20,000 nt of DNA from Stramenopiles sp. TOSAG23-2 (GCA_900128395.1 LT649241.1:57262-77261); one strand, 5' to 3'. Positions 1 through 20,000 are shown, numbered from the stretch's first letter. Numbers and translations: made by a program. The notes: a model not told the origin generated them from the sequence alone.

Positions 1-1221
1 TGCATAACAAAATGGTTTTGGTAAATTTTCCTCATTGTACATTTTTTGATTATGAAATCTCATGTATTCATTAAATGAAGTTGTTGAAATTTCTTTGCCA
101 ACAGCATCCCTTAATTGTTTGTAAAGCATATTTTCAATATCTTGCATTGTATCCATCCATCGCTTTGCAATTACAGTTAAATGCAATGCAATGAACATCG
201 TTTTCGCCTCATACGATGTCATCAATTTATTATAAATATATTTTTCTTCATCTTGTGTTATCGATTCTATTTTACTTATAACATTTGTTAGATCTTTTGT
301 ATGTTGCATTAAAATAGAATGCACATCTTCCATTTTCATCATAATTCCTAAACGATTCTCGCCATCACGTTCCATTATTGGTCCCGTAGGCAAAGCTTTT
401 TTCACGCTTTCATTTTGTATAATTGAATATAAATCTTTCATATTGTCATGTACTTTGTCACTTTCGATTCTGGTAGTACTTTGTAGATTTGTGTAAACAT
501 ATTGAAAGAATTGTCTAAATTCATTCATAAATACAAATGCAGTTTTAACATCCTCGTTACGACGTGGTGTTCTACAACTATCTTTGCTACGATCAATTTT
601 AAATTCCAATTGACCTTTCTCTCCATTTAATAAGTTCAATAAAAAATTCATTTTTAATTTTTTTTCCCCTTCTCGAAAATGTTTAATTGGATTGTTTTCA
701 CTCCCAACAACTTTTAACTCGTATGTACCTTCAGCCCGGCTAAATATAGTGGTCTCTTCATTTGTACTGTCAGAACCAACAAATAATGTAATTTTCCATT
801 CATCGACTACTTTCCAATAATATTCTGTGATCGTGTGTACAATTTTTTTCGTTTTTGTTGACTTGTTACCTAAAAAGTTCGTTGTTTCTTCAACTTTTGT
901 TGTACCACTATCAACTTGTTTCTCTTCTTTTCGTAGAAATGTTGCACTTGGTTTGTTATAAAATTGCATATTTACAACTTTACCATTTACATGATGTTGA
1001 CGATATTTTTCTAAAATATCAGGTGTTACACCGATCATCTCCAATGTATTTAACAATCCAATACATGATAAGCTTGTACTCCATGCTGCTATTGAATATT
1101 TATCATCATAGGTATGTTCAATATCAGCTGCTGATATTGGATTACGCGTATTACCTAAAATCTCTTTGATTTTGATAATAGCATCCTTGATTTCTTTTCG
1201 TATTGGATTATTGCCAAACAT
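1..1221 (-). CDS. Hypothetical protein, 407 aa visible, 3' end runs off the window
   Basis: Hand translation from ATG at 1221: MFGNNPIRKEIKDAIIKIKEILGNTRNP...FKIDRSKDSCRTPRRNEDV...IENMLYKQLRDAVGKEISTTSFNEYMRFHNQKMYNEENLPKPFCYA, with no stop in 1221 nt of AT-rich DNA. Absent from the ORF track, presumably because there is no in-window stop. Confidence 0.9.
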   Translation of the reverse strand, partial: MFGNNPIRKEIKDAIIKIKEILGNTRNPISAADIEHTYDDKYSIAAWSTSLSCIGLLNTLEMIGVTPDILEKYRQHHVNGKVVNMQFYNKPSATFLRKEEKQVDSGTTKVEETTNFLGNKSTKTKKIVHTITEYYWKVVDEWKITLFVGSDSTNEETTIFSRAEGTYELKVVGSENNPIKHFREGEKKLKMNFLLNLLNGEKGQLEFKIDRSKDSCRTPRRNEDVKTAFVFMNEFRQFFQYVYTNLQSTTRIESDKVHDNMKDLYSIIQNESVKKALPTGPIMERDGENRLGIMMKMEDVHSILMQHTKDLTNVISKIESITQDEEKYIYNKLMTSYEAKTMFIALHLTVIAKRWMDTMQDIENMLYKQLRDAVGKEISTTSFNEYMRFHNQKMYNEENLPKPFCYA

Positions 1222-2116
1222 GTTGGGTTCGTTCTGAATTTAATATATATATATGTTACTTTTGGCAGTTACAATAGTTATAATATATATATAGATAGAT
1301 AGATAGGTTGTATATGTTTTTTAATCTCTATCTATCACTTTATCTATATAATCTATTTATCTATGATGTGCATATCTTTATTTTGCACCTTTTGGATGAT
1401 ACGTACAGTACAGTATTGCCGATCAGAGGAAGATCTGCCATCAAACCCCCCTCCGATTAAACGCCTCCTTTCCTACATTTTTAGATTTAAGTACAATATT
1501 AGTATACTATAATTTAACTACTTGATAGGAAATCGACGAAAAATCGCAAAAAATGCACAAATTGTGTACTTTTTTGGTTCGAAATTTTATAGTATCAAAT
1601 TTGTTACATGTATCTATTATATCTATCCCCCGCGGATTTGCAACTGAAATAAAAAGTGCACTTCTCGATTATATGCTTAGTAGAATACAGAAATTACATA
1701 GGGTGTCCGCTGATATTATGGTGATAGGAGTCGAAAACAGTAGTGTTAGTAATTTAATAGTACAAAATATACACACATTATCACACATATCACCCTCTAA
1801 ACATATTTATAGGATACAAATTTAAAACATAATTAATCGCCGGCGTTATTTATTTATTATTATACATGTTCTCCAACCTTTTGGTTTTTACATTTTTAGT
1901 TGATTATTTTCTTGTGTTTTTTTTTTGCTGTTTATGACTTACAATCTAAATATATATAATTTTAAAATTATTTTCCAGAAAAAAAAGAATAATTTTTGTT
2001 TGGAATAATATTATCGCGATTATATACAAGTCACCATGAAGTTTCTCCGGTAATATTTATATTTACCTAAACTGAGAGCGGGAAGGACGCAAAGATATGC
2101 AGCACACCCGCCTCGC

Positions 2117-3125: not shown

Positions 3126-3409
3126 GCCCGCAGAAAAATAATTTCATTCTTCCTTGAAAAGAACAAACAATTCATATAAATACTAAAAATGTTCAAGATT
3201 AAATAGATAACAAACAGCAAAAACAAAAAAACAAAAATACGAATTTTAAAAAATGTTATCAGTAAAGGCCCGCAGAAAAATAATTTCATTCTTCCTTGAA
3301 AAGAACAAACAATTCATATAAATACTAAAAATGTTCAAGATTAAATAGATAACAAACAGCAAAAACAAAAAAACAAAAATACGAATTTTAAAAAATGTTA
3401 TCAGTAAAG
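3126..3409. repeat. Exact tandem duplication, 142-bp unit
   Basis: 3126-3267 = 3268-3409 (gcccgcagaaaa...cagtaaag). Confidence 0.95.
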
Positions 3410-3610
3410 CGGTTAACAGCGAACAAAACAAGATAAATTGTAAATTTCAAATCTAGACAGATTCAAATAATTACCAAATTAAAAAAATCACGCCGCTTGT
3501 TTTTTTGTATTTTGTTTAAAAGAAATTATTTATAATTTAGCATCATAGTCCACCACCCACTCTGCAGGATTTCACGGTTTTAAATAACACAAACCGATAC
3601 CTGTGATAAC

Positions 3611-4207
3611 ATGTGGAAAGAAATATTTTATGTTTTCGATATTATATTTAATATTTCTTGGGTAGTTACATTTTTTGTTGTTTTCATTTGTACTTATCAT
3701 ATTTGTTCCGATTTTATTCGGCGTTCGAAACAAGATAGGGAAAAAAGCTGTTGTGATAGTTTAATTTTAGATATAATAGAATGTGTACTTATCATGTGTG
3801 GGGCAAGTATGCTTGCTGGAATGTTTTTTATAATGCTTTTAAGATATTTATTTTTTTGGGAAGGAATGCGAACAAGTGTAAGTAAAATATGGGTATTATT
3901 GGACTTCAGAAATGTATGCATATTATTAATTGTTTCATTTATTACATTAATATTATATCGATATTTAAAAGTTCAAGAGGTAATTGTAAAGTTTAAAAAG
4001 CGTTACCCAAATGGAGATCCTTTAATATTGTCAATTGAATTTAACAATTTTGTAAATATTCGAGATATTGTTAGATTAGGTTCTTATGATCTTAATAAAA
4101 ATACTGGGAAAGATAGTAAAGGAAATATGTATACACCGCTTCAAATGGCTCGGCGTGTTGATAATAAAAAAGTTATTTCGTATTTGAAAAAGCATGGTGC
4201 GAAGTGA
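3611..4207 (+). CDS. Small membrane protein (about 3 TM helices) with C-terminal ankyrin-repeat-like motif
   Basis: 198-aa ORF with three hydrophobic stretches. The C-terminus DSKGNMYTPLQMARRVDNKKVISYLKKHGAK matches the ankyrin consensus (TPLhxA....n.evv.yLl.hGA). Confidence 0.7.
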   Translation: MWKEIFYVFDIIFNISWVVTFFVVFICTYHICSDFIRRSKQDREKSCCDSLILDIIECVLIMCGASMLAGMFFIMLLRYLFFWEGMRTSVSKIWVLLDFRNVCILLIVSFITLILYRYLKVQEVIVKFKKRYPNGDPLILSIEFNNFVNIRDIVRLGSYDLNKNTGKDSKGNMYTPLQMARRVDNKKVISYLKKHGAK

Positions 4208-4212
4208 GAACA

Positions 4213-4528
4213 TTTTTTGAAAAAAGAGTCTCATAACAAGTTAAAATAATTTATTTTTTATTATTCGTATCATATATATATATATATGTATATATAAAAA
4301 AGATATTATCAATTATTTATAAATGTTCTATAAAAAAAAATATTTTTTTCAATTTTACCAAAACTAATATTTTTTTGAAAAAAGAGTCTCATAACAAGTT
4401 AAAATAATTTATTTTTTATTATTCGTATCATATATATATATATATGTATATATAAAAAAGATATTATCAATTATTTATAAATGTTCTATAAAAAAAAATA
4501 TTTTTTTCAATTTTACCAAAACTAATAT
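4213..4528. repeat. Exact tandem duplication, 158-bp unit
   Basis: 4213-4370 = 4371-4528, including an identical (TA)n tract length. Confidence 0.95.
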
Positions 4529-4843
4529 TTTTATACGAAGTATATTTTACAACTTCCCATTCTTATCTTCATAATGACGAAAATGCCTTGCATTTAATGG
4601 CATCGTAAAAAATACACGTACATTTTTAAATTATACTCTTTCGAAACATTATCTCCTTGTTAAATCATTATGACTTTGGTAAAACTAATATTTTTATACG
4701 AAGTATATTTTACAACTTCCCATTCTTATCTTCATAATGACGAAAATGCCTTGCATTTAATGGCATCGTAAAAAATACACGTACATTTTTAAATTATACT
4801 CTTTCGAAACATTATCTCCTTGTTAAATCATTATGACTTTGGT
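4518..4843. repeat. Exact tandem duplication, 163-bp unit, spanning the stop codon of the large membrane gene
   Basis: 4518-4680 = 4681-4843. Confidence 0.95.
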
Positions 4844-7800
4844 ATTCTTGTCTAATATTTTGCGATTGAACGGAGTAAAAATGTTCTTGTGCTTTAATGG
4901 CATCTTTACGTTGTAAGAAAACTGTCCATGTTCTTTTTGCTCGATCTGTAAAAACTATTCTAGCCAAATGAATTACTTTTGGTTCAATGTATCTAAATCG
5001 TCCTCGATGAAATTCATGGTGTTCATATTCTAAAGCTTTAAACTTGCCTGCTGTATATTTCCCCTTTTCATAAACTGCGGGGGTTTTTTTCCTCGAGATG
5101 TATCTCCCCATAGTGACTCTACCCAGTCGCTTTCTTTCGCTTGTTAATATTGCAATGCAAATCATAACTATGACTTCAATGACTAATGCTATCATAACAG
5201 AAACCCATGGGCCCATGTACCGAGCATGACAATGACCACATTTGTTTTTTGCCCGATGCAAATGATCATATGGATCATCTGGGTCATCTTCTTCAATTTT
5301 TGGACACCACCACTCTGGATTCACTGGTGGTTTTGGAGTAGTTACTTTTGGTGGTAAAGGCGCCGAGGTTGGTCCAGGCGTGGTCGTTGGCCCCGCCGTT
5401 GTCGTTGGTGGAGTACATCCTATAACCGCATAAGGACCAGGAGATGTACATAATGTCACTGACGGAGTTCCATAATACCCTTCATCACATGAAAGACTAT
5501 TTGCACACTCATTTGCATTGCCATCTTTTCTTAGACATTTAGCTGCGCTTTCATTAGTAAAGTTATACCCAATCATATTTGTTGGCCGAGTACATACCAC
5601 TACATTACAACCAACCAAATTATACTTCTGGGACGTGCCAGTACATACTTTTTTCTTAGACATTTAGCTGCGCTTTCATTAGTAAAGTTATACCCAATCA
5701 TATTTGTTGGCCGAGTACATACCACTACATTACAACCAACCAAATTATACTTCTGGGACGTGCCAGTACATACTTTTGCTGAGGGTGCTGACGGGGTTCC
5801 AGTCCAGCCATTGGCACATTTTAAACCCTCAACTTTAAATCCACTTACATCTAAAATTTCGTCACTCACTCCAACTCCAGAGAAATCAAAATTTTTAATC
5901 AAATTTTGATCGGTCGGTCGCAAACATGTATTAAAGCACCCTGTAACAGTATAAGGGCCCGGAGATGTGCATAATGTTACAGCTGGCGATCCAACAAATC
6001 CAGTAGCACATGATACAACTCCAGAGAAATCAAAATTTTTAATCAAATTTTGATCGGTCGGTCGCAAACATGTATTAAAGCACCCTGTAACAGTATAAGG
6101 GCCCGGAGATGTGCATAATGTTACAGCTGGCGATCCAACAAATCCAGTAGCACATGATAGACTTTCCTTACAAGTATTTGAATTGCCACCTGTGCTTAAA
6201 CACTCAGAACTTTCACTATTATAATTATATCCAGTGGTAGTTGGTCTAGTACAATCCGCTGTACAGCCAGTTAAGCCATAATATCTATCATTATCAGTTC
6301 CAGTAGTACCACTGCATTTTAATACTGTATCTACAGTACCAGACCACCCACTCGCACATTTTAAACCCGTTACGGAAAAGTTACTGAGTGTCAATGTTTC
6401 AGTCACATTGGTGTAGTTATAACCCTCAGTATTAGTGCGACGAAGACATGAATTATAACACCCTGATACGGAATATTTTCCACCCGCGGAAGTACATAAT
6501 GTTACATCTGGTAATCCAACATACCCGGTAGCACATGATAGACTTTCCTTACAAGTATTTGAATTGCCACCTGTGCTTAAACACTCAGAACTTTCACTAT
6601 TATAATTATATCCAGTGGTAGTTGGTCTAGTACAATCCGCTGTACAGCCAGTTAAGCCATAATATCTATCATTATCAGTTCCAGTAGTACCACTGCATTT
6701 TAATACTGTATCTACAGTACCAGACCACCCACTCGCACATTTTAAACCCGTTACGGAAAAGTTACTGAGTGTCAATGTTTCAGTCACATTGGTGTAGTTA
6801 TAACCCTCAGTATTAGTGCGACGAAGACATGAATTATAACACCCTGATACGGAATATTTTCCACCCGCGGAAGTACATAATGTTACATCTGGTAATCCAA
6901 CATACCCGGTAGCACATGATAGACTTTCCTTACAAGTATTTGAATTGCCATTCTTAAATAAACAATTATTCGAGTCTTCGTTGGTATAATCGTATCCAAT
7001 AGTTGATGGTCGTTTACATATTGGGTCACATCCGGTTACTGTGTAAGCAGCACCAGCATCTGTACACAAGGTAACGTCAATATTAGACTTAGTATCGTAA
7101 TTGGCAGCACATGCAAGACTCTGTGCACAATCGAGTTTATCACCAGAATTTGCTCTAAGACATGTACTACTATTTTCATTAGTAAAGTTATACCCATTTA
7201 CATTTGTTGTTGGCCTTTTACATTTTGGTTCACACCCAGAAACTGAATACGTTAACGTAGCACCACTACATACTGTCGCTGTTCGTACTTGTCCGGGAAG
7301 CGTATCCCAATTATTTGCGCACTGCAAGGTAACTTGAAATGCATCTACTTTTAAATTTTCATTAGGAAAAGTATAACCGTCAACTACTGGTCGCACACAT
7401 TTGTCCTGACATCCTCCTACTGTATAATGTTGACCTGGAGTTGTACATAAAGTTACGCTCGGTGTCCCAACATAATTCGTATCACAGCTCAGACTACTGG
7501 AACAAGTATCTTTATTGCCATCCGTAAATAGGCAATTGATTTTATCTTCCTCAGTATAATTATAACCGTTCAGATCCGTTTGAGCGTTGTTGTTTTTTGG
7601 TCGTGTACATTCTGCTTTACAGCCTGTTAGAGAATATTCCACTTTACCAGTTTGACAAACAGTTGCTTGTGGGTTACCTCTATAACCAGCTGCACACTCC
7701 AAACCGGTGACAGAAAACGTAGCAACAGTCTTGTTTTTTGGTCGTGTACATTCTGCTTTACAGCCTGTTAGAGAATATTCCACTTTACCAGTTTGACAAA

Positions 7801-8923
7801 CAGTTGCTTGTGGGTTACCTCTATAACCAGCTGCACACTCCAAACCGGTGACAGAAAACGTAGCAACAGTCAAATTTTCATCTAAGTTTTTACCACCAAA
7901 ATAATAACCAACAATAGTTGATGGACGTTTACATTTATCAACACAACCAGAAACAGAATATGGTCCATCAGATGTACACAATGCTACTGATGGACTTCCT
8001 CGGTAATCTGTATCGCACGCAAGACTTGCAGCACACTTATTAGCATTGCCGTCACTTGAGAGACAATAACTTTTAGCTTCCCCCCTGTAATCATACCCTT
8101 TTGTTTTAGGCCGTGTACAATTTCCAATTTCATTCAACACAACCAGAAACAGAATATGGTCCATCAGATGTACACAATGCTACTGATGGACTTCCTCGGT
8201 AATCTGTATCGCACGCAAGACTTGCAGCACACTTATTAGCATTGCCGTCACTTGAGAGACAATAACTTTTAGCTTCCCCCCTGTAATCATACCCTTTTGT
8301 TTTAGGCCGTGTACAATTTCCAATTTCAGGTACACAATTGGAAAAATATGGTTCTCCTTTTTGTTCCTTCCCGTATTCCATGTTCCAATATTTCTCATCA
8401 CACCAAAGTTTTCCTTGGTGTTGAGCTGGAAGATTAGGTATGCACGTACCACTTTGTTCTAATCTTCTCTCTTCCATCATCAACCGTCGTTTCCCATCCC
8501 ATCTATATGGCTTTCCAAGTGTTGCAATGTTCCTTCCCGTATTCCATGTTCCAATATTTCTCATCACACCAAAGTTTTCCTTGGTGTTGAGCTGGAAGAT
8601 TAGGTATGCACGTACCACTTTGTTCTAATCTTCTCTCTTCCATCATCAACCGTCGTTTCCCATCCCATCTATATGGCTTTCCAAGTGTTGCAATTGCAAT
8701 TACGAAGACAAATATTAAATGCCAACAAAATGCACATGACGTTAAAATACATGCTCGATGATGATTTTCAACATTTTCATGAATCGCTTTTATAGAGAGT
8801 AGATTCCGTGCAGTTCCTATATTAGAGAAGTGGCAATATAATACATGTTAGGATATTTAGGTTTACTTTACACTAAGAATATTTTAGTAGAAGAAGAGCA
8901 CAGATGAAATTCTCGTTCTAGTA

Positions 8924-8954
<31 letters not shown>

Positions 8955-10740
8955 TACATACTTGTCATTTCTATGCCACCTGGTTCAATGCCATTATCTT
9001 TTTTTTTTGGCACTTTTTCTAATATTTCTTCTTCTTCTTCTTCTTCTTCTTTCTTCCTTTGTGATTTTCTTGGAGATAAGAAATCAACTGGGCGTTCGAC
9101 CACGGTCTCATTTGTATTTGGATTAAAGTAAACGTCTTTTCCTGTAATAGGATCCTGTCGTTTGATCCAATAATTTCTTTTCGTTCCATCTGTTGCTTCA
9201 TGATCATCTGGTAGTGCCCATGAAGAAATCAACTGGGCGTTCGACCACGGTCTCATTTGTATTTGGATTAAAGTAAACGTCTTTTCCTGTAATAGGATCC
9301 TGTCGTTTGATCCAATAATTTCTTTTCGTTCCATCTGTTGCTTCATGATCATCTGGTAGTGCCCATGACGTCTTACGACTCTCTCGGTGAAAATAATAAT
9401 CTTTCCCAGTTTTTGGATCATGATGCTGTTCATAAATATGATTTTCTTCGTCTGCCAACTCTTCATTTTCCCTTTCTGCATCTTCTACGGTGTTTTTTTC
9501 CACTTGCCTTAGATTTCTAAGGGTAATAAATAATAATCTTTCCCAGTTTTTGGATCATGATGCTGTTCATAAATATGATTTTCTTCGTCTGCCAACTCTT
9601 CATTTTCCCTTTCTGCATCTTCTACGGTGTTTTTTTCCACTTGCCTTAGATTTCTAAGGGTAATAGCCTCGCAAATCAACAGGAACGCCAATGCTGCAAT
9701 TGCATATATCATGTATTGTATCGCTGGCATAAATGCAAATTTACCGGTGATCACACCGGTATTCATTGCCATAAACCATAGAAAGAAAATATAGCATAGA
9801 AGAGCAATATAGATCGTCGCAGTCACAGGATTCAAGCCAGAGCATAAGCTGCATCGTGGAGCTTCACATCGGCACGGTTCAATTTTAGCAGGCGTCACCA
9901 ACTTCCTTCTTTGATATTTTGGGCATGTAATACGACAACATTTCATTCTAGGGCAGCGACAGGTAGGAAGTTCAATATCCCATTGGCCTTTTAACTTCTT
10001 ATCAAATTGAAAATAATCAACCTCTGTAATATGTTCTGGAAATAAATTTTTTGTATGTGCTGGCGACCATACTTTTTTCCCAGAAAGTACTTTGGTATTC
10101 ATACGATAAGAAGAAGTCATTCTGGAAATAAATTTTTTGTATGTGCTGGCGACCATACTTTTTTCCCAGAAAGTACTTTGGTATTCATACGATAAGAAGA
10201 AGTCATTCGAATCCTATCGTCGCAAATGATTAAATCATATGCTTTTTCACCATGTCGCAGGGATCCACGAAATGCATCAGTTGGTTTTTTACCACCATTA
10301 AGTCGAACATGTTGTACACCAGAATCATTTAAATCTACGGTGTCTTGTACAATTTCATACTATTTTGTAGACAAGTGTTAGTAAATTGTGTGAGAAAAAG
10401 AAATGGTTAAAATATACTGTATATAGGTACGCATATACGGATTTATACAAAGAAAAAAAAAACTTACCTCATCTTCCATAAGTATTTCCTCTGAGACAAC
10501 GTCGTTAGATTGTACTTTTATTCCTACTTTAGTATTAAGTTTAAGTGGATTAAGTGTTGTATTTAGTGAATTATGTCTAATTTTATTTAGTTTATTTAGT
10601 GGATTCATTGTTGTATTTAGTGTTGTTAACTCTTGCTCTTTCATTTTTTGCTTCGTCATGTTTTGTCTCATTATGTTTGTGCTTTTATTGCCTCTCCCAC
10701 CTTTACCACCACTACCACTCTTGAGAGAGGATCTCTTCAT
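4812..10740 (-). CDS. Large 4-TM surface protein with tandem WW domains and Cys-rich repeat ectodomain (3 exons, ~1511 aa reconstructed)
   Basis: Exon 1 10740-10468, exon 2 10359-8962, exon 3 8816-4812. Removing one copy each of the 86, 137, 145, 166, 196, 141, 144 and 125-bp duplications gives 273+1030+3233 = 4536 nt = 1512 codons in one frame. Features in order: TM1 (TATIYIALLCYIFFLWFMAM), TM2 (MPAIQYMIYAIAALAFLLICEAITL), two WW, poly-E, TM3 (ACILTSCAFCWHLIFVFVIAIATL), Cys modules, PT-rich stalk, TM4 (WVSVMIALVIEVIVMICIAILT). Confidence 0.85.
5526..5775. repeat. Exact tandem duplication, 125-bp unit (frameshifts the CDS)
   Basis: 5526-5650 = 5651-5775; explains the break between track ORFs 5600..8164 and 4812..5663. 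Confidence 0.95.
5872..6159. repeat. Exact tandem duplication, 144-bp unit (in frame, 48 aa)
   Basis: 5872-6015 = 6016-6159; creates a partial Cys module. Confidence 0.95.
6147..6950. repeat. Tandem duplication, 381-bp period (127 aa = one A plus one B Cys module)
   Basis: The 42-bp segment gtagcacatgatagactttcc...gaattgcca occurs at 6147, 6528 and 6909; the intervening sequences look identical. Confidence 0.93.
7590..7871. repeat. Exact tandem duplication, 141-bp unit (in frame, 47 aa)
   Basis: 7590-7730 = 7731-7871. Confidence 0.95.
7938..8328. repeat. Tandem duplication, 195-bp unit plus 1 extra base at the junction (frameshifts the CDS)
   Basis: 7938-8132 = 8134-8328, extra t at 8133. 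Confidence 0.95.
8362..8693. repeat. Exact tandem duplication, 166-bp unit (frameshifts the CDS)
   Basis: 8362-8527 = 8528-8693. Confidence 0.95.
8817..8961 (-). other. Spliceosomal intron 2 (145 bp, phase 1) of the large membrane gene
   Basis: Donor ACA A|GTATGT at 8961, (TA)n tract, CCTAAC branch-like motif, acceptor CTAATATAG|GA at 8817. Splicing gives ...GGIEMT-R-TARNLLSIKAIHENVENHHRACIL... in frame. Confidence 0.85.
9078..9367. repeat. Exact tandem duplication, 145-bp unit (frameshifts the CDS)
   Basis: 9078-9222 = 9223-9367. Confidence 0.95.
9391..9664. repeat. Exact tandem duplication, 137-bp unit (frameshifts the CDS)
   Basis: 9391-9527 = 9528-9664. Confidence 0.95.
10034..10205. 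repeat. Exact tandem duplication, 86-bp unit (frameshifts the CDS)
   Basis: 10034-10119 = 10120-10205, with ttc microhomology. Confidence 0.95.
10360..10467 (-). other. Spliceosomal intron 1 (108 bp, phase 0) of the large membrane gene
   Basis: Donor GAG|GTAAGT at 10467, canonical TACTAAC branch point at 10383-10377, acceptor AATAG|TAT at 10360. Splicing gives ...ILMEDE-YEIVQDTVDLNDSG... in frame. Confidence 0.9.
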
Positions 10741-10952
10741 GATTTGAATTGTTTGTTTGAAAGCTCTCCTAAACCTAAATAATCTATTATCTTATCTAAT
10801 GGATAATAATCAACCTGCAGATTTTTGCAGAGTGTAAGTTATATACTGTATGTATATATATTTTAATATATCTAAAATCTAAAAAAAGCATTTTTTTGAT
10901 GAAGGGCACAAGGCACGAGAAAATAAAAAAAGCTAACAACTGGCTAATAAAG

Positions 10953-11920: not shown

Positions 11921-14407
11921 TTATTTGGTTTTCTGCAAGAGTTCCAGTATTAAATCCATTTTTTCGGTCATTTTCTTCATTTCTTCTTGACGGGACTGTT
12001 TTATTTCTTTCATGTCATTTTGTAACTTTTCTATTTTTTTATTCAATCTTGTTTCCATTGGTTGAATAACTTTTCTGACATGGTTTCCACCTTCCCTTGA
12101 CGCTTCTTTCTCTTTTCGTAATGTATCTGTATGTTTATAAAGCTCCCATATTTTATGACTAATTTGATACTTTTCGAGTTCCGAAATAAGTGACTCCTTA
12201 CAGAGTGAACGTTTTTTCTTCTTACCTTCCAAAATTACAGCAATAATTTGCTGTAATAATAACTTCTCGCGAATATGAGAAAAAAAAGCATATGTAGTTT
12301 CGTATGGTATCTTCACAGAGTTATTTTCACTTGTCGATATTTCTTCCGCATTTTTAAGTTTTAGTACAGTTCCAACAATTATATTTACATCATCTGCCTT
12401 CAGATGTGCCATTTTTTCTTCAATTTTTGTTACATTGTCTGTCATATAATGTTTCAACACTTTTATCAAAATGTCACTTTGTAATTCTTTATCAAACACA
12501 AGTCCATCCGATACCGCATCGCATGCATCTAACAGAATTTTAGAGCCCATTGTGGAGGTAAAACGCATTTTTGCTACCCATGCTGGCCCATAGTCTGCGG
12601 CGTCAGCCTCTTTTACTGCTGGCTCAGAACATTTACATTGCATAGGTATGCATTTCTTCAATATCATTAATGGTTGAAAAATGGCTACATATGCTAACCG
12701 GTGAAGTGTATATTGAATAATGGTTTCATTTGCTCTTGTCCTCAAGCGTTGCTTGTCTTTGTGAATTTCAAAACCATCACTAATAACAGCAATCAAAATA
12801 TTGACAATGACTGTGCTCATAACAAGAAATATTAACCAAACGGTGATATACTTATACATATAAGCACCTCCCATACCAATTCCGTTGTAATTTGACCCAA
12901 GTCCATCAGACATGTAGTTATCATAATCATATAAACCAAAAGAGAAGCGAGCAATGGTATTCATAGCAGTGAAGAATGTTGCAAAATCGCGATAACCACC
13001 CCATCCTCCAGAACGAATGTAACCAAATGATGCACAACCAACTAGAAGGACTAACACAATAAATAATGTGTTGCTTATATCACTAAATGCATACCATAGT
13101 GTACTAGTTAAGACGTTTGCACCACTATGCCAAGATAATTCTTTTACCACAAGCAACATTATCCAAAGACTTCCAAATGCTAATACAAATGCGGTTTGCG
13201 CATTTCTCTGATAAATAGAGTTATATTTATCATAACCATAATTAAATCTAGTTGTCTTTTCAATTGAATTTACTTCTCCGAAATCGTGTTTTATTAATGC
13301 ATCTTTTGGGAATTCAGCAAGAAACCAGTACATTAGTTGACCAGTAAAATAAAAAAATATATATAAACTAACCAAATCAATTTTGTATGGAACTGTTCTG
13401 ATAATACTAAAAATATGAGAACATTGTAAATTTGACTTGTTATTATTCCAATTATACTGGCATAAAGTGATACTTGAAATAGTCCGCCACAAGTAGATAA
13501 GTTGCCATATGGAGGAAATGGCAAACCATGCAATGAAGCTATAATTTGTAGAAAATGGGATGGTGTTTATTGATTTGGTTTGCAGTTGGAAAATATTTTC
13601 TCCATCATTTTCAAGCCATATATCTGTCCAATACCATAAATGATAATACGGGTTAAGTGTTTCAATTACAATCTCTCTTACTCGTATTGCTTTTTCTTCA
13701 TGACTTAACGCTTTTTCTAAATTTCTCAATTGTTTAGATACAATTTTACTTCTGTTGCTTTGGTTAAGTTCTGCAGAATAAATCGGCACGGAAATTGAGC
13801 CCCAGTGCTTAAAAACTTCACTATATACATCATATTTATCTTTCAATAATAAAACAATATCATTTAAACCTTCATCATGTTCCATTGAAGAGACACCCGA
13901 ACAAGCTTTATCATACTCTTTTACGCGTGACTCGTCATGAATTTTACTTTTGTATCCAAGTGGGTGGTGTTTTGTGTGGTTGCATAATGTTGGTTCTATA
14001 TAAATGGTTGCTCTCATCAGTACCATATTCATTTCTTCAACCTGTTTGCTATTTACAACTAAATCTTCCACTACATTTAAAGTCCATAAATTAAATTTTG
14101 CACGGCCTAGTGAGTCATCTGGCACTATTAAGTTTCTTCTCAAGTTTTGCTTGTCTACTTGCAAATCGACGTTATAAGTTATTGAACAATTAAGCTGAAA
14201 GATAATGACTATATATATAAGCAGAAACGTACACCGATTCCAACCTTCATATGCATAACGATCCTCCAATACTTCAAAGAAATTTATAGAATATTCCGTT
14301 TCTTTTTCCATGGAGTCCTTGTCCACTTCCACATGTTTTTTGTCCTCTTGCCAGCGATTAGCTCGGTCGGATGATGGCACTATCTGTCCAAGTCGTGCAT
14401 TTTCCAT
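11921..14407 (-). CDS. Polycystin-2 (PKD2/TRPP)-like cation channel, 828 aa, apparently intronless
   Basis: S1 followed by a large extracellular loop, then S2-S6. S4-S5 linker LVVKELSWHSGANVLTSTLWYAFSDI; pore helix RDFATFFTAMNTIARFSFGLYDY; S6 VIVNILIAVISDGFEIHK (cf. PKD2 LLNMFLAIINDTYSEVK); C-terminal coiled coil. Confidence 0.85.
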   Translation of the reverse strand: MENARLGQIVPSSDRANRWQEDKKHVEVDKDSMEKETEYSINFFEVLEDRYAYEGWNRCTFLLIYIVIIFQLNCSITYNVDLQVDKQNLRRNLIVPDDSLGRAKFNLWTLNVVEDLVVNSKQVEEMNMVLMRATIYIEPTLCNHTKHHPLGYKSKIHDESRVKEYDKACSGVSSMEHDEGLNDIVLLLKDKYDVYSEVFKHWGSISVPIYSAELNQSNRSKIVSKQLRNLEKALSHEEKAIRVREIVIETLNPYYHLWYWTDIWLENDGENIFQLQTKSINTIPFSTNYSFIAWFAISSIWQLIYLWRTISSITLCQYNWNNNKSNLQCSHIFSIIRTVPYKIDLVSLYIFFYFTGQLMYWFLAEFPKDALIKHDFGEVNSIEKTTRFNYGYDKYNSIYQRNAQTAFVLAFGSLWIMLLVVKELSWHSGANVLTSTLWYAFSDISNTLFIVLVLLVGCASFGYIRSGGWGGYRDFATFFTAMNTIARFSFGLYDYDNYMSDGLGSNYNGIGMGGAYMYKYITVWLIFLVMSTVIVNILIAVISDGFEIHKDKQRLRTRANETIIQYTLHRLAYVAIFQPLMILKKCIPMQCKCSEPAVKEADAADYGPAWVAKMRFTSTMGSKILLDACDAVSDGLVFDKELQSDILIKVLKHYMTDNVTKIEEKMAHLKADDVNIIVGTVLKLKNAEEISTSENNSVKIPYETTYAFFSHIREKLLLQQIIAVILEGKKKKRSLCKESLISELEKYQISHKIWELYKHTDTLRKEKEASREGGNHVRKVIQPMETRLNKKIEKLQNDMKEIKQSRQEEMKKMTEKMDLILELLQKTK

Positions 14408-14914
14408 GACAATTTATCGATAAACTACAATACTAATCATAAACTGCGTGGGGTGCGAGGGGCTTTTGTTTTGTTGTTGTTGAAATAATATTTAATTTAC
14501 TAGTGACTAGTGTTTTATATTATAAATATATAAATATAATATAACTGCCAGAACTATCTGTGCTCCTAGTATTAAAATACATTGCAGAAAAGGCTGTAAA
14601 AAATATACAAGCGTATTATAAGCATACCAGTAATATAATAAATATTAATAGGCATCCTATAAGACCTAAGAGCTATAAGAGTATAAGAGCCTAAGTGCGT
14701 AAAAAATTAGAAGAAGTACGAGAAGTAGTAGCTACTGTATACTTAGAATACTACACTACCTAATAAAAAAAAAAAATAATAAAAATAATTTCAATTATTA
14801 GAAGAATAATAATACTATTATTATTATGTGCTTATTGAAATTATTACCAGGACTTCTTTCTACATACATGTATACATAATAAATAAAAAATCAAAATTCA
14901 AAAAGGTGCAAAAT

Positions 14915-15124
14915 TATCACACAATGGGAAGAAAAACATATGTACAAAACGATTGATTTACACATATATTATTACAGCTTTTACGTGTGTATGTATTTTG
15001 AAAGATAACGTTTATCATATATCACACAATGGGAAGAAAAACATATGTACAAAACGATTGATTTACACATATATTATTACAGCTTTTACGTGTGTATGTA
15101 TTTTGAAAGATAACGTTTATCATA
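14915..15124. repeat. Exact tandem duplication, 105-bp unit
   Basis: 14915-15019 = 15020-15124. Confidence 0.95.
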
Positions 15125-15194
15125 TTGTACCATATTGATACCTACATCCATTTTTTTTGTTTGTTATATACATATATATATATATACACATAAC

Positions 15195-16265
15195 ATGTCC
15201 AATTTAACCACGTTAAACAACATTAACTATGCACAACGTGTCATTGAAAGTCATGCTGAAACAAGTAGTTTAAACCACCATGTTGAAACAATACAAACGA
15301 GTCGTCCTGTTATAAAAAAGACAACGAAAAAAACATTGAATAAAAAGAAACGTAATGCATTATCAAATGTTGAGCCAAATTTATTAGGTATGAAAAAAGC
15401 GAGATCAAATAATGATGATAATACAACAAATACTGACGAAGATAATTTTACTAATATTGTAACAAACTGTCCAGATATTGATGAGTTGTTTCATGAAGGA
15501 AAAGGTTTACGAGAGAATGATATTGTTTCGATATATGGTAAAGCCGGTCTTGGTAAAACACAAATATGTCACATTTTTGCAGCCAATTGCTTGTTTAATG
15601 ATTCAAAAAGTAAAGTTATTTGGATATCATGTAATAATAATAGTTTTCGACCATCTCGTATCAAAGAAATTTTACAATCAAAAAATTTACCAAATACAGA
15701 AATTTCAAAATTATTAGATCAAATCTTATTTATTGACATTCAAGGAAAATATAAAAATGGAAATACATTGGATGGAGTTGAGACGTTTGTCAAAATAGCA
15801 AAAAATCAAGCTAATGTTAAATTGTTAATTGTTGATTCTATTGGAAATGCATATAAAATACATCGCAATAGTAAAAAAAATGGTGCACTACCATCAACCG
15901 TCTCACCAAAATTAGCAATGAATCGTGTTATAAATACTATTAAAGAATATGTTCAATTTAAAAAAACACCAGTTATTTTGACAAATGATGTTGTAGCAAA
16001 TATGAGTGGTGGTAGTAGCAGCAATTATAATAACAATAAAGATGACGATGGCAATGGTAGCGGTAGTAGTGGAATAAGTATTTACTCGGCGTCAAAATTT
16101 ACTAGTAAGCCTGTTATCAATATTGAGAGGCATTGCAGTTTAATTTTGAGATTAACACGTAGGGATGGAACATCAAGACGAAAAATGACATTATTATCAC
16201 AAAATAATGATGCTATGAATGAAGCAATGTTTGATATTGTTACAACTGGTTTAGCTGGGAATTAA
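15195..16265 (+). CDS. RecA/RAD51-family ATPase, RAD51-paralogue-like (resembles RAD51D), 356 aa
   Basis: Likely ATG at 15195 (MSNLTT). TNCPDIDELF..GL, Walker A GKAGLGKTQIC, FRPSRI, Walker B LLIVDS, VILTNDV, C-terminal FDIVTTGL. No recognisable N-terminal HhH domain as in RAD51/DMC1. Confidence 0.85.
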   Translation: MSNLTTLNNINYAQRVIESHAETSSLNHHVETIQTSRPVIKKTTKKTLNKKKRNALSNVEPNLLGMKKARSNNDDNTTNTDEDNFTNIVTNCPDIDELFHEGKGLRENDIVSIYGKAGLGKTQICHIFAANCLFNDSKSKVIWISCNNNSFRPSRIKEILQSKNLPNTEISKLLDQILFIDIQGKYKNGNTLDGVETFVKIAKNQANVKLLIVDSIGNAYKIHRNSKKNGALPSTVSPKLAMNRVINTIKEYVQFKKTPVILTNDVVANMSGGSSSNYNNNKDDDGNGSGSSGISIYSASKFTSKPVINIERHCSLILRLTRRDGTSRRKMTLLSQNNDAMNEAMFDIVTTGLAGN

Positions 16266-19200
16266 TACAACGTACGACTTCGTAACTTTTTGGTCTTCGT
16301 TTTTTTCTACTACTATTACTTGATGATGACGATGTGGAGGAAGATACACTGGCAATACTTATCCGTGGTAAACTTTCAATTCCATCATCACCATTATTAC
16401 TATTACTACTACTACCACCACCAGTTGCAGTTGAATTGGTATACATATTTTTCAAAAATTTACTCATGTTTTGTTCAATAGTACGTGCATTGTCTGTATC
16501 TCTTTGTAAATGTGAAAATTTACGTTGTAAATTTTGAAATTCATTACGTTTTTCCTCCAATTCAGCTTTAACATTTCTATTTTCTTTTTCTAAACTGCTT
16601 AATTTTCTTTCGCAACGTTTTAATTCTTGCCTTAATCCGTTCTCACGATCTTCTGCTTGTGTAGCAGCTCTAATAGCTTCTTCCCTTGCAAGATTCATTG
16701 ACTCAACTTGTTTCTGCATTTGTACAAATGCTTTGTCATTATCTGCATCACCTGATTGCAATTCATCTTGTAAATCTTCAATTGTTTTCACTGCATTTGC
16801 TAATAATGATTGCGTCGATTGTAGTTTTTCTTCTAAATCAGCTTTTTCATCTTCTACTCTGTGAATTTCTTCTGTCAATTCTTTCGTACGACCTTGAAAT
16901 GCAAATACTTGTTGTGCTGCTTCATCTGTCATTTCTTTTAATTCTTTTTTAATTGTATTATTTGTATTGGTAAGTTTTTTCATTTCAGTTTTTTTCATAT
17001 CCATTTTTTTGCAACAATTCATCACAACGCATTTGTGTTTTTTCTTCCTGTTTAGTCGATTTCTCTACTAAATTTTCTAAATTTTTAATATCTTCTTTAT
17101 GTGTTTTATTTGCTTCTAATATTTTCATTTTTAACACTTGTTCTGAATCCATTCTAGATTTTAATTCAACAGTTACTTCCTCCAATTTTGATAGTGTCGC
17201 TTCTAGCGAACGTTGGGATTTACCTTTTTGATCATTTGCTTCAATTAATTCCTCATTAATACGTTTCAATTCTTGCTCTGAATCAATTTTCATACGTTCT
17301 AATTTACCTACATGTTTGGTCATTTTTACTAATTTTTCCTCAGCATCTAATTTAGCTTTTTGTATTAAACCGTGTTCTTGCTTCATTTCATTTTTTATAC
17401 GTTCCGACTCTTCTTTAAATGAAACTTCCATTTCTTTGCGATCTTTTGCAGCATTTTGCAATGAAACTTCAACGTCGTTGCAAGTTCTCCTTGCATTTTC
17501 AGCTGCCATGCGTAAAGTACGATTTTCCTCTTCTGTTGCACGTGCATTCTCTTCCAATTGTATAATTTCATCCGCTTGTCGTTTCAATTGATTTGTAGCA
17601 TTTACAAATTTTTCTTGTAATCTCTGTGTTTCCTCTTTTAATGCTTCAACCGTTTTTTTCGTAACACGGCCACTTTTCTTCGCCTCTGCAAATTTAGTAC
17701 GTTCCCGTTCCGTTTCTTCCTGTGCTTCTTTCATGCGCATTTGTAACATTTCCATTTCATCTTTTAAATTTTTTACAATACGATCTTTTGCTTTTAATTC
17801 TGTTTGCAACGTACGTGTTTGATTACTTTGATCTTCCATTTCTTTACTAATCATGATCGAACTTTTTTCTAAATGTGTAATTTTAGTTTTGTAACGATCG
17901 ATAGAATCTTCCGCTTTTTCCGCGCGTTCAATTGCCTTTTCCGTGCATTTTTCTGCATGGCGACAATCCTCAATTGCTTGCAAACATCTATTTTTTTCTT
18001 TCGTATATTTTTCAACTTCATTCTGTAATTCACCACGGACTTCAGCAACTTCTTGCACGTGATCATTTGTTATCGATTTCATTTTACTTTCTAAACGTAT
18101 ACGTTTCGCCTCTTCATTTTCTAGTGTTTCCTTCAAAATATCCATTTCTTTTAACAAATTTCCTCGTTCTTTTGATATTTTAGATCCACGTTCTCTTAAT
18201 TCGCTTAACTCGGCTTCATACCCGTTAATTTGTTTTTGTAACTTATTGCGTGATCCATCGCAATCTTTCAATTCCTTCACGAGACGTTTTAAATGTCCTT
18301 CCATTTCTGATTCATTAATCGACATATTGTTCATTTTATTAATTGCATTTTCTTTCTCTTTTTTTAAATCTGCAATATTAATTTTCATTTGATCCATTTC
18401 ACGATGTTTTCCTTGTAAAAATGCCGCTTCACGTTTACTTTGCTCTTGAGATTCTTCCAATCTACTCGTCAAGTTCATGATGGTTTGATGTTGTGTTTCA
18501 ATTTGTTGTTGAAATTTTTCACGTTCTGCACGAGAACGTTCTTGAACTTGTTGTGCGCGACCACGTACGTTGTTCAATGCGTTGCGCATTGATGCAATTT
18601 CATTTGTAATAGCTTCATTCGATTTCTTCAAATTGATTAATTGTGAACGTGCTATTTTACATTCTTGCCTTGCTTTTTCCGCATCTGCTTTTGCATTGTT
18701 CATTTCTGTTTTATACATATTAACATCATTTTTCATCGTTTCCGTTTCTGATTGCATTGATTGATGTAAATCCCATGTTTGTTGCAAATGTTTTAAAAAC
18801 ACTTCGCTAGTAGCACCATGCGTTGTTAATATACGATGTGAAATAGTGTTTCCACCAGTACCACCAGATGGACTTGCTAATAGTTTAATGCCATTTGTTG
18901 CAACAGCTGCGCCAGCATTAGCATGTGGTTGTTGCACCCTAGCAGTATTATTATCATATTGAGGTGGTTGCTGAGGAGCATATTGGTTATTATTGTTTTC
19001 CATTAATCTAGATGATGGTGGTGGGCCAGTACCTGGAGTTGAAGCATAATTTTGAGGATATGCTGGAGGTTGTGGTGGATACATCATATTTTGTTGGTTT
19101 GCATTACGATTATTATTGTTACTATTACTCCTATTGTTGCCGTTGTTATTTGTACTTTGTAATAAATTAGTTGGTACAAACGGTGGTGAACGATGTCTGA

Positions 19201-19480
19201 CAGGTGCTTGTACAGGTGGTGTTATATCCCGTTTTGATTTACGAGATTTACTTCCACGTGCACTGGGAGGTTGTTTGTTTCGTTTGCTTTTCTTTTTCAT
19301 AGTGGTAGTAGAAGACATAATGTTTCTGTTATTTTCTTTGTTGTTACTACTATTATGGTGACGACTACCATTAATTTGGTCCAACTGGTTTACGGTTTGT
19401 GCTAATTGAGCTTCCAATTGTTGTTTTCGTCTTAATATTTCTTCCGTTGCATAATTATTTTGTTGTTGTTGTCTCGACAT
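16240..19480 (-). CDS. Long coiled-coil protein with N-terminal Q/N/P low-complexity region (~1079 aa if one frameshift near 16989-17010 is corrected)
   Basis: The 831-aa and 261-aa track ORFs overlap in different frames. Deleting one A from either A7 run (17004-17010 or 16989-16995) fuses them, and E/K/Q-rich heptad composition continues across the join. Confidence 0.8.
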
Positions 19481-20000
19481 ATTGCTATACTATTTTTTTC
19501 CACAATTTTTTCGTGGTTCTTATTAACAATGTAATGATGATGATATATTAAACAATAATATATACATATATATATATTCAAACTTTATATATATGAAATA
19601 ATGTATACATCTAGGAGGTAAGAACTTTTCAATAAATATATATGGAGGAAAAAAGACTATTTAGCACTGAATAGAATTGATTGAATACTTTTCACAAATT
19701 TTAACGGCCTTACCTGGTGATGCTGGTAACGATCATCAAAGTGGTGAACACTTTTAAAATACTAAAATTCCAAATAATTATCACATAATACATATACACA
19801 GCTCCTTATTTTATATTATAATATAAATATCCGTAATGTAGAAATAAAATATTATTATACAACGATACTAAAATTATTTTTTTGTGAATATAAAATTCAT
19901 GTTTAAACATCTGAGGTTTTTGAATAATAAGTTCCAGCTGCCGCACTTCGAGATAAAAATTAAGTGTTCTCAGGAAGTTATTTTGCCTATATAAAATTGT

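Follow-up and report, generated by a model that had tools for sequence, protein, structure and literature searches.

Tetraspanins have four transmembrane (TM) segments, a small first and a large second outer loop, both termini inside the cell, juxtamembrane Cys residues and a polar residue in TM4; the large outer loop carries a CCG motif, and the inner loop and the tails are short. Sushi/CCP/SCR proteins (PF00084) carry units of about 60 amino acids (aa) with four core Cys residues, paired 1-3 and 2-4 in a beta-sandwich; EGF, TSP1 and Sushi domains are standard extracellular binding modules, and polycystin-1-like receptors and adhesion G-protein-coupled receptors combine a GAIN/GPS domain with 7 or 11 TM segments. 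Six proteins with a split PH domain (PLC-gamma, syntrophins, ROCK, Vps36, PIKE and myosin X) are named as the six known in the accessible part of one survey (PMC3216653), in which the PH fold is interrupted in an inter-strand loop by soluble insertions, namely SH2-SH2-SH3, zinc fingers, C1, a nuclear localisation sequence or a second PH domain. MTA and MTB of Tetrahymena, according to the accessible sections of a further report (PMC7786109), are multipass protist proteins of about 1500 aa, conserved in the membrane part and variable in the outer part, which possess five C-terminal TM helices and furin-like repeats and for which no WW or PH domain is described there. Here, we describe a gene at positions 4812-10740 of a 20,000-nucleotide (nt) stretch of DNA from Stramenopiles sp. 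TOSAG23-2 (GCA_900128395.1 LT649241.1:57262-77261), the whole of which was analyzed and is referred to as the window; all features of the gene lie on the minus strand.

The product of this gene is a member of an unnamed family of four-pass membrane proteins, the layout of which fits no named receptor family within the libraries searched. The first-pass annotation, made from the DNA alone, had proposed an architecture unlike those of described families, and none was matched in Pfam, NCBIfam or the PDB sequences searched: NCBIfam gave nothing significant for the four proteins compared (4/4), and a search of PDB sequences with the family profile returned WW matches plus one row at E 6.7. In contrast to polycystin-1-like receptors and adhesion G-protein-coupled receptors, the protein has four TM segments and no GAIN/GPS match in Pfam. 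No description of the four-pass family was found in the literature searched, which was thin in subscription papers and did not include supplements. As far as these searches reach, the architecture appears to be categorically new, a claim that concerns architecture and not mechanism. We consider the protein to be, with a probability of roughly 0.55, a cell-surface recognition or adhesion receptor that would signal through a predicted split PH domain and an optional WW pair; its ligand, location and coupling are what we infer.

The corrected frame runs from an ATG at 10740 to a stop codon at 4814-4812 and encodes 1511 aa. The correction consisted of removing two introns (10360-10467 and 8817-8961) and reducing eight exact tandem duplications of 86-196 nt, located within 5526-10205 (starting at 5526, 5872, 7590, 7938, 8362, 9078, 9391 and 10034), to single copies; the same operations had led the first-pass annotation to a single frame of 1512 codons, which the corrected coding sequence reproduces as 1511 aa plus the stop. 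The frame is truncated if either intron is kept or if any one of six frame-shifting duplications is left in, and the 141-nt and 144-nt duplications are in frame and merely lengthen the protein. Alternative GT-AG pairs also open the frame, and reads were therefore needed to fix the introns. Contigs of four runs (X1, DNA; X5, X6 and X8, RNA) were compared with the window. A poly(A) RNA contig of 2039 nt (X5 record 6), which covers 7768-10792, joins 10359 to 10468 exactly and crosses intron 2; the intron-1 joint is also seen in X6, from a second study, and a contig of X8, from a third study, leaves the window sequence at 8816 in a loose end that reads on from 8962. In the DNA run X1, intron 1 is kept and the contig reads into intron 2. 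Both splice junctions are thereby confirmed in RNA contigs. Separate transcripts flanking 8817-8961, the outcome that would have divided the predicted single gene, were not found, and two genes on either side of intron 2 are ruled out by X5 record 6, by X8 and by P0002 and P0207, which are single-frame proteins across this point.

Exon 1 (10468-10740; aa 1-91) encodes a variable, low-complexity N-tail, is extended to 10792 in X5 record 6 and is identical in the independent assembly L029; it is followed by intron 1 (108 nt, GTAAGT..AG), exon 2 (8962-10359), which contains three artefactual duplications, intron 2 (145 nt, GTATGT..AG) and exon 3 (4812-8816), which contains five short artefactual duplications and a 381-nt repeat. 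No single RNA contig covers the whole gene; for the 3′ half, continuity is provided by single-frame proteins, of which P0003 and P0210 connect aa 492 to TM4 and P0207 extends from the N-core to the end. The window stretch is present in 20 of the 24 runs listed, ten of them RNA, and transcripts occur in metatranscriptomes from at least four studies. The gene is confirmed to be real, spliced and expressed.

Across the window, 14 tandem duplications (exact or with one mismatch; 86-196 nt) were identified in genic and intergenic sequence, plus the 381-nt repeat. Every coding duplication is skipped by contigs from at least one of the four runs. The DNA run X1, which shows five joints that skip a duplication and a loose end at the sixth duplication in its range, may be the source sample and is thus a good test of the assembly but no independent support; the independent assembly L029 is also free of the six duplications in its range. 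The short tandem duplications are assembly artefacts that DNA and RNA contigs lack, and real pseudogenising duplications are ruled out by contigs built from reads without them. Duplications of the same type are found outside the coding region at 2117-2318, 2727-2984, 3126-3409, 4213-4532, 4518-4844 and 14915-15125, and the one at 4518, which overlaps the stop codon of the four-TM gene, is skipped by RNA contigs. Other gene models of the same assembly will be broken likewise by such duplications. The 381-nt repeat (6147-6950; two exact copies in a 423-nt exact run) is probably an assembly loop and possibly a copy-number allele. Its unit (127 aa) is single in all three close records covering it (P0003, P0210 and P0209), and its contig depth is 1.0-1.2 times that of the flank (118.5 versus 99 in X1 and 8.06 versus 7.74 in X6), which makes a protein of 1384 aa likelier than one of 1511 aa. 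The protein is probably 1384 aa long with an ectodomain of about 720 aa; the large Cys-rich ectodomain of the first-pass annotation is retained, and its length of about 850 aa is probably an overestimate.

A profile of the N-terminal part identified five full-length single-frame homologues among 4164 candidates; a second profile search added fragments alone (10 matches in all, 7998 candidates scored), and a cluster look-up added near-copies, one of which is labelled Stramenopile-MAST_4 by its source. Protein candidates were retrieved by shared words, a procedure that wider relatives may escape. Single-frame homologues with the same domain order (P0153-P0157, P0192 and P0207), the existence of which the first-pass annotation had left to be looked for, are 35-50% identical to the window model outside the ectodomain cassette. 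All members keep the N-tail core, a Cys-rich linker, TM1-TM2, DxGxExG, TM3, an RRL motif, three plus three Cys residues flanking the cassette, TM4 and the C-tail. Another family member, 56% identical, is represented in the same genome by its N-terminal part (G000:C8880; L020). A scaffold tree of 10 rows groups the members by cassette type, a grouping that is inflated by near-copies and in which the EGF group is unsupported (52/35). None of 50 candidates from viral contigs was confirmed as a family relative, and among 41 from prokaryotic genomes the one match, of 27 residues within an unrelated spirochaete open reading frame, was judged to be due to chance.

Four hydrophobic segments are located at aa 243, 279, 458 and 1382 (Kyte-Doolittle 2.15-3.02). 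TM1 (9755-9826; about aa 241-264) was placed by hydropathy and a structural model; TM2 (9653-9730; about aa 273-298) is associated with invariant C292, E293, T296 and N299, TM3 (8686-8757; about aa 455-478) with W466 and H467, and TM4 (5142-5210; about aa 1380-1402), which is followed by an RLGR motif, with E1391. The inner loop of about 155 aa contains two WW domains, the tails measure about 240 aa and 110 aa, and 13 of 19 sequons fall within the ectodomain. The orientation was assigned because WW and PH domains belong inside the cell and EGF, TSP1 and Sushi domains, together with most sequons, outside. The four-TM topology with a cytosolic WW pair and a large ectodomain, as initially annotated, is supported by hydropathy, by the model of the homologue P0154 and by homologues in the same order. 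A cytosolic linker before TM1 (9827-9979) has seven invariant Cys residues and a predicted local distance difference test (pLDDT) score below 50 in the P0154 model, and may be a palmitoylation or metal site. The RRL motif after TM3 (8626-8655), present in 8/8 long members, is a possible convertase site. The cassette is bordered by a conserved N-side flank (8334-8610) with invariant C504, C518 and C540 and, beyond a Pro/Thr-rich stalk (5319-5414; aa 1312-1343), by a conserved C-side flank (5214-5315; W.CP ... HL.RA...CG.C) with invariant C1348, C1370 and C1373.

The cassette itself (5415-8315) consists of 12 units (10 with a single copy of the 381-nt repeat), each 59-70 aa long and containing 4 or 6 Cys residues, mostly in alternation, and is Sushi/CCP-like: C1, C33, C46 and C58 are invariant in 15/15 units, and an extra Cys pair is present in about half. 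ESM Atlas features point to Sushi clusters (0.94), with the ten best named matches all in one clan and a low recognition value. The Pfam Sushi profile (PF00084) matches 0/8 window units and, weakly, 2/7 paralogous units; it passes the cut-off for P0016 and for two relatives from the window's own genome, L016 and L018. The repeat also matches weakly (E 0.9) the poxvirus chain OPG190, which we take to be SCR-containing. A single-sequence fold of the ectodomain protein P0003 (pLDDT 32.6) was set aside. Compared with Sushi/CCP/SCR proteins, with which the units share their length, the four core Cys residues and these feature and weak profile matches, the window units differ in their Pfam result and in the extra Cys pair, and they are placed between two TM helices and not on a single-pass protein. 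Something like the repeat is carried by 192 database representatives; because scaffold profiles match P0003 alone among 150 of these 192 relatives, the Sushi-like repeat is a promiscuous module.

The type of cassette differs among family members: it is Sushi-like in the window protein and P0207, EGF-like in P0153 and P0154, of TSP1 type in P0157 and P0192, and an unnamed Cys repeat in P0155 and P0156. Its length varies from 246 to 847 aa, different types are unalignable (BLASTP E > 0.2 between types), and in Pfam the EGF-type cassettes score below the cut-off and the TSP1 cassettes above it. These comparisons show the ectodomain to be an exchangeable cassette of at least four types, set between six invariant Cys residues. 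The disulphide-rich repeat of the first-pass annotation thus stands, but not as something wholly new. The repeat is also found in other contexts. In two single-pass proteins of the same genome (L015 1906-6102, plus strand; L016 1219-3657, minus strand), it is accompanied by a second type of Cys module, a stalk rich in Thr and a WW domain at the C terminus; the two share a segment, presumably SEA-like, with an RRxL-type basic motif. At two further loci (L017 2-3892, minus strand; L015 1-1812, plus strand), it alternates with Kelch propellers, an SRCR domain or RCC1-like repeats; judged by their domain composition, these proteins are a domain-shuffling repertoire of surface proteins. P0124 and P0075 are other multi-pass proteins with the Sushi-like repeat, the membrane scaffolds of which are unrelated.

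Among close records, the cassette is more variable than the scaffold in three of four comparisons, with all Cys residues kept: it differs from the window at 28/385 residues against 10/541 in the scaffold for L029 (P = 7e-5) and at 62/638 against 4/199 for P0210 (P = 1e-4), and is likewise more divergent in P0209 (P = 1e-3). A second version of the ectodomain, 89% identical, is present in the same assembly (G000:C3790; L002) and represents an allele or a recent paralogue. These data bear on whether the protein serves self/non-self or mating-type recognition, with a polymorphic cassette that encodes identity and binds a counterpart on a conspecific cell, as MTA and MTB do in Tetrahymena. Old balanced alleles would give a cassette that is more divergent than the scaffold at silent sites as well (synonymous divergence, pS, is about 0.05 in the cassette versus 0.004 in the N-core), the second version in the same assembly would fit, and MTA and MTB, in the accessible text of PMC7786109, also join a conserved, Cys-rich multi-TM end to type-specific parts. 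However, differences of 5-10% are far below the mating-type divergence given in that text (<60% nucleotide identity; PMC7786109), no sequence link between the window protein and MTA/MTB was found, the furin-like repeat and the five terminal TM helices being absent, and transcripts in ten RNA runs from at least four metatranscriptome studies are not suggestive of a rare sexual stage. Gene conversion among the repeats would account for the variation equally, and we regard a recognition role of this kind as unlikely. Gene conversion or balanced alleles fit the cassette variation as well as positive selection does.

On the cytosolic side, the WW pair is the sole Pfam match above the cut-off in the gene pieces (PF00397, 37.8 bits versus a cut-off of 26.9). 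WW domain 1 (9357-9574; aa 325-351) is split in the window by a 137-nt duplication, and WW domain 2 lies at 9234-9317 (aa 365-392); both are atypical, with Tyr at the first Trp position in the former and Val at the second in the latter. PF00397 is matched by five of the seven members of alignment A2, and the TSP1-type branch (P0157 and P0192) has a Lys-rich loop in place of WW domains. In the same genome, ordinary single-pass proteins likewise bear WW tails. From its distribution, the WW pair is an optional adaptor and not a constant module of the family. The first-pass annotation, which tentatively gave it a signalling role, was right about its presence; a predicted split PH-like domain, absent from that annotation, is the constant cytosolic module.

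This domain was recognized in an AlphaFold2 model not of the window protein but of the homologue P0154, calculated from 30 alignment rows, which contains four long helices, strands of the N-tail at residues 87-147 (block pLDDT 71-86) and a beta-beta-alpha element of the C-tail at residues 855-888, the helices and both tail elements scoring mostly 70-86. In a structural search of 48,161 chains, the helices (residues about 190-810) matched generic four-helix bundles with Z up to 13.7, which is not diagnostic, and both tails together were matched by the PH domain of Rtt106 (Z 9.5, root-mean-square deviation 2.6, 87 residues aligned, model residues 83-890) and by the PH-GRAM domain of MTMR6 (Z 9.2, deviation 2.5, 84 aligned). 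In a second search of 993 chains, 48 of the best 50 rows run from model residues 66-87 to 886-901 (best Z 9.8) and comprise PH, GRAM, PTB, FERM-F3 and bacterial PH entries with 82-116 aligned residues, a number that needs both halves because the strands of the N-half account for about 60 residues. Five strands precede TM1 and two strands plus a helix follow TM4, which places the split between beta5 and beta6. In the window protein, the N-half (beta1-beta5) corresponds to 9998-10320 (about aa 105-183; invariant R122, S124, L125, R126, K166 and FPEH at 169-172) and the C-half (beta6-beta7-alpha; block pLDDT 68-83 in the P0154 model) to 4848-5003 (about aa 1449-1500). The prediction is thus of a single PH-like domain, built jointly by the N- and C-tails and interrupted between beta5 and beta6 by the whole four-helix bundle.

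That the split domain is a modelling artefact, the tails being separate modules of a real four-pass protein, would be in keeping with a shallow alignment (its rows form about six distinct clusters), a low global score and the lack of a Pfam PH or GRAM match on either half. The two halves, however, supply complementary elements with good local pLDDT, every full-length member conserves both of them, whether or not it has WW domains, and they align jointly with many unrelated PH-fold proteins, so that an artefact appears improbable. Other searches were less informative: a Foldseek comparison with the PDB and viral models gave no match at E <= 0.001, its top PDB rows being WW domains and its PH rows weak, ESM Atlas returned no usable match for the N-terminal part of P0154, and a two-chain prediction of the halves (score 0.00; made without alignments, so that the partner fold was uncertain) is evidence neither way. 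PH-GRAM and PH-like domains (MTMR6, Lam6, Rtt106, BBS5 and bacterial DUF1696) are the best structural matches to the reassembled domain of the model (Z 7.9-9.8); theirs are contiguous and share 5-14% sequence identity with the model, and a shared fold implies no shared ligand. Among the split PH proteins listed in the accessible part of PMC3216653, PIKE is also interrupted between beta5 and beta6. In contrast to the soluble insertions of those proteins, that of the four-TM family would comprise 700-1300 aa, four membrane crossings and an extracellular cassette.

The topology raises the further question of a tetraspanin-like organiser or auxiliary subunit, in which the bundle and the PH domain would scaffold a partner such as an adjoining PKD2-type channel and the ectodomain would act as a tether or mechanical antenna. 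The small and large loops, the two internal ends, the juxtamembrane Cys residues and a Glu in TM4 agree with this, as does, 1.2 kb upstream and in the same orientation, a frame of 830 aa for a polycystin/TRP-type channel (11921-14413, minus strand), with PF08016 and PF00520 above the cut-off. The CCG motif is nevertheless absent from 8/8 members; PF00335 matches eight other loci of the genome, none of them on the contig of the window; a profile comparison with own-genome tetraspanins gave a probability of 0.3%; and neither PPxY nor LPxY occurs in the neighbouring channel. We therefore do not favour such an organiser and think it an unlikely function. Identity as a tetraspanin was rejected for want of the CCG motif and of a PF00335 or tetraspanin-profile match (the split gene pieces lower the sensitivity of the PF00335 search) and on the length of the inner loop (about 155 aa, including the WW domains) and of the tails, which form the predicted PH-like domain. 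The structural matches listed name no tetraspanin, claudin or MS4A chain. Three of the eight tetraspanin-like matches of the genome are on contig C755, including one (G000:C755:14786-15361; L036) above the cut-off inside an open frame of 4795 aa. An oligomeric channel or transporter gated by ligand or force, with four-helix units forming the pore and the split PH domain providing lipid gating, would make use of the invariant polar or charged residues of TM2-TM4 (E293, T296, N299, H467 and E1391) and of the RLGR motif. Such residues serve helix packing too, the bundle matches generic helical bundles alone, and no channel family was matched in Pfam, NCBIfam or PDB sequences; we hold this to be very unlikely.

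The other neighbouring genes comprise a Rad51-paralogue-like ATPase (15114-16265, plus strand; PF08423, E 3e-14) and a long coiled-coil-like protein (16240-19489, minus strand) in two overlapping frames of 834 and 274 aa, with a frameshift or intron near 17000 and no Pfam match above the cut-off for the 834-aa frame. A 207-codon frame with hydrophobic stretches (3584-4207, plus strand), one end of which is presumably ankyrin-like, and a 413-aa frame (1-1239, minus strand) have no Pfam match.

For the cell-surface recognition or adhesion receptor that we prefer, the following sequence of events may be envisaged. The cassette, on a disulphide-tied base and a Pro/Thr stalk, would bind prey, substrate or another cell; TM1-4, predicted to pack as a single bundle with the conserved polar residues E293, N299, H467 and E1391, would pass binding or clustering on to the cell interior; at the inner leaflet, the split PH domain, by which the two ends are tied together, would engage an acidic lipid or a partner protein; and the WW pair, where present, would recruit Pro-rich partners, for instance from the cytoskeleton or the ubiquitin system. 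Such a protein may have an adhesion or prey-sensing role, as the first-pass annotation supposed. Several observations weigh against this interpretation. The fold rests on one homologue model with a mean pLDDT of 45.7 and a predicted template modelling score of 0.31; the rows of the second structural search are redundant, with many NF1, GRK2, BTK and Rtt106 entries; and the stretches of about 45-55 aa that connect the PH halves with TM1 and TM4 are poorly modelled, so that direct mechanical coupling is only a proposal. Six K/R residues follow TM3 on the presumed outside, contrary to the positive-inside rule, and TM1 is below the hydropathy threshold in P0154 and P0156. The cassette-versus-scaffold comparison for P0003 is not significant (P = 0.64), and the ratio of nonsynonymous to synonymous differences in the repeat (pN/pS, 0.82 and 1.01) does not exceed 1, silent divergence being raised as well; positive selection on the cassette is accordingly unsupported.

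A bolder version, tentative and rather doubtful, would make the family a novel class of receptors in bacterivorous marine stramenopiles, with a fixed four-helix chassis, plug-in adhesion modules and cytosolic ends that build a PH domain; ligand binding, clustering or cleavage at RRL would turn PH assembly or presentation on and off and thus act as a direct lipid or protein switch, from outside to inside, that serves prey capture and dispenses with kinases and G proteins. Members were found in about six sequence clusters from marine sources, a narrow range that limits the general importance of the family. If the prediction is true, split PH domains would be extended to a membrane-crossing insertion, and the natural domain swaps of the family separate binding from signalling. 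In the accessible text of a comparison of 15 species of marine stramenopiles (MAST), core phagocytosis genes are called hard to define (PMC8163842), and a term search of its main text found none of “receptor”, “WW domain” and “sushi” (PMC8163842). For prey recognition or mutual recognition by uncultured marine flagellates, the four-TM family offers an expressed and testable candidate.

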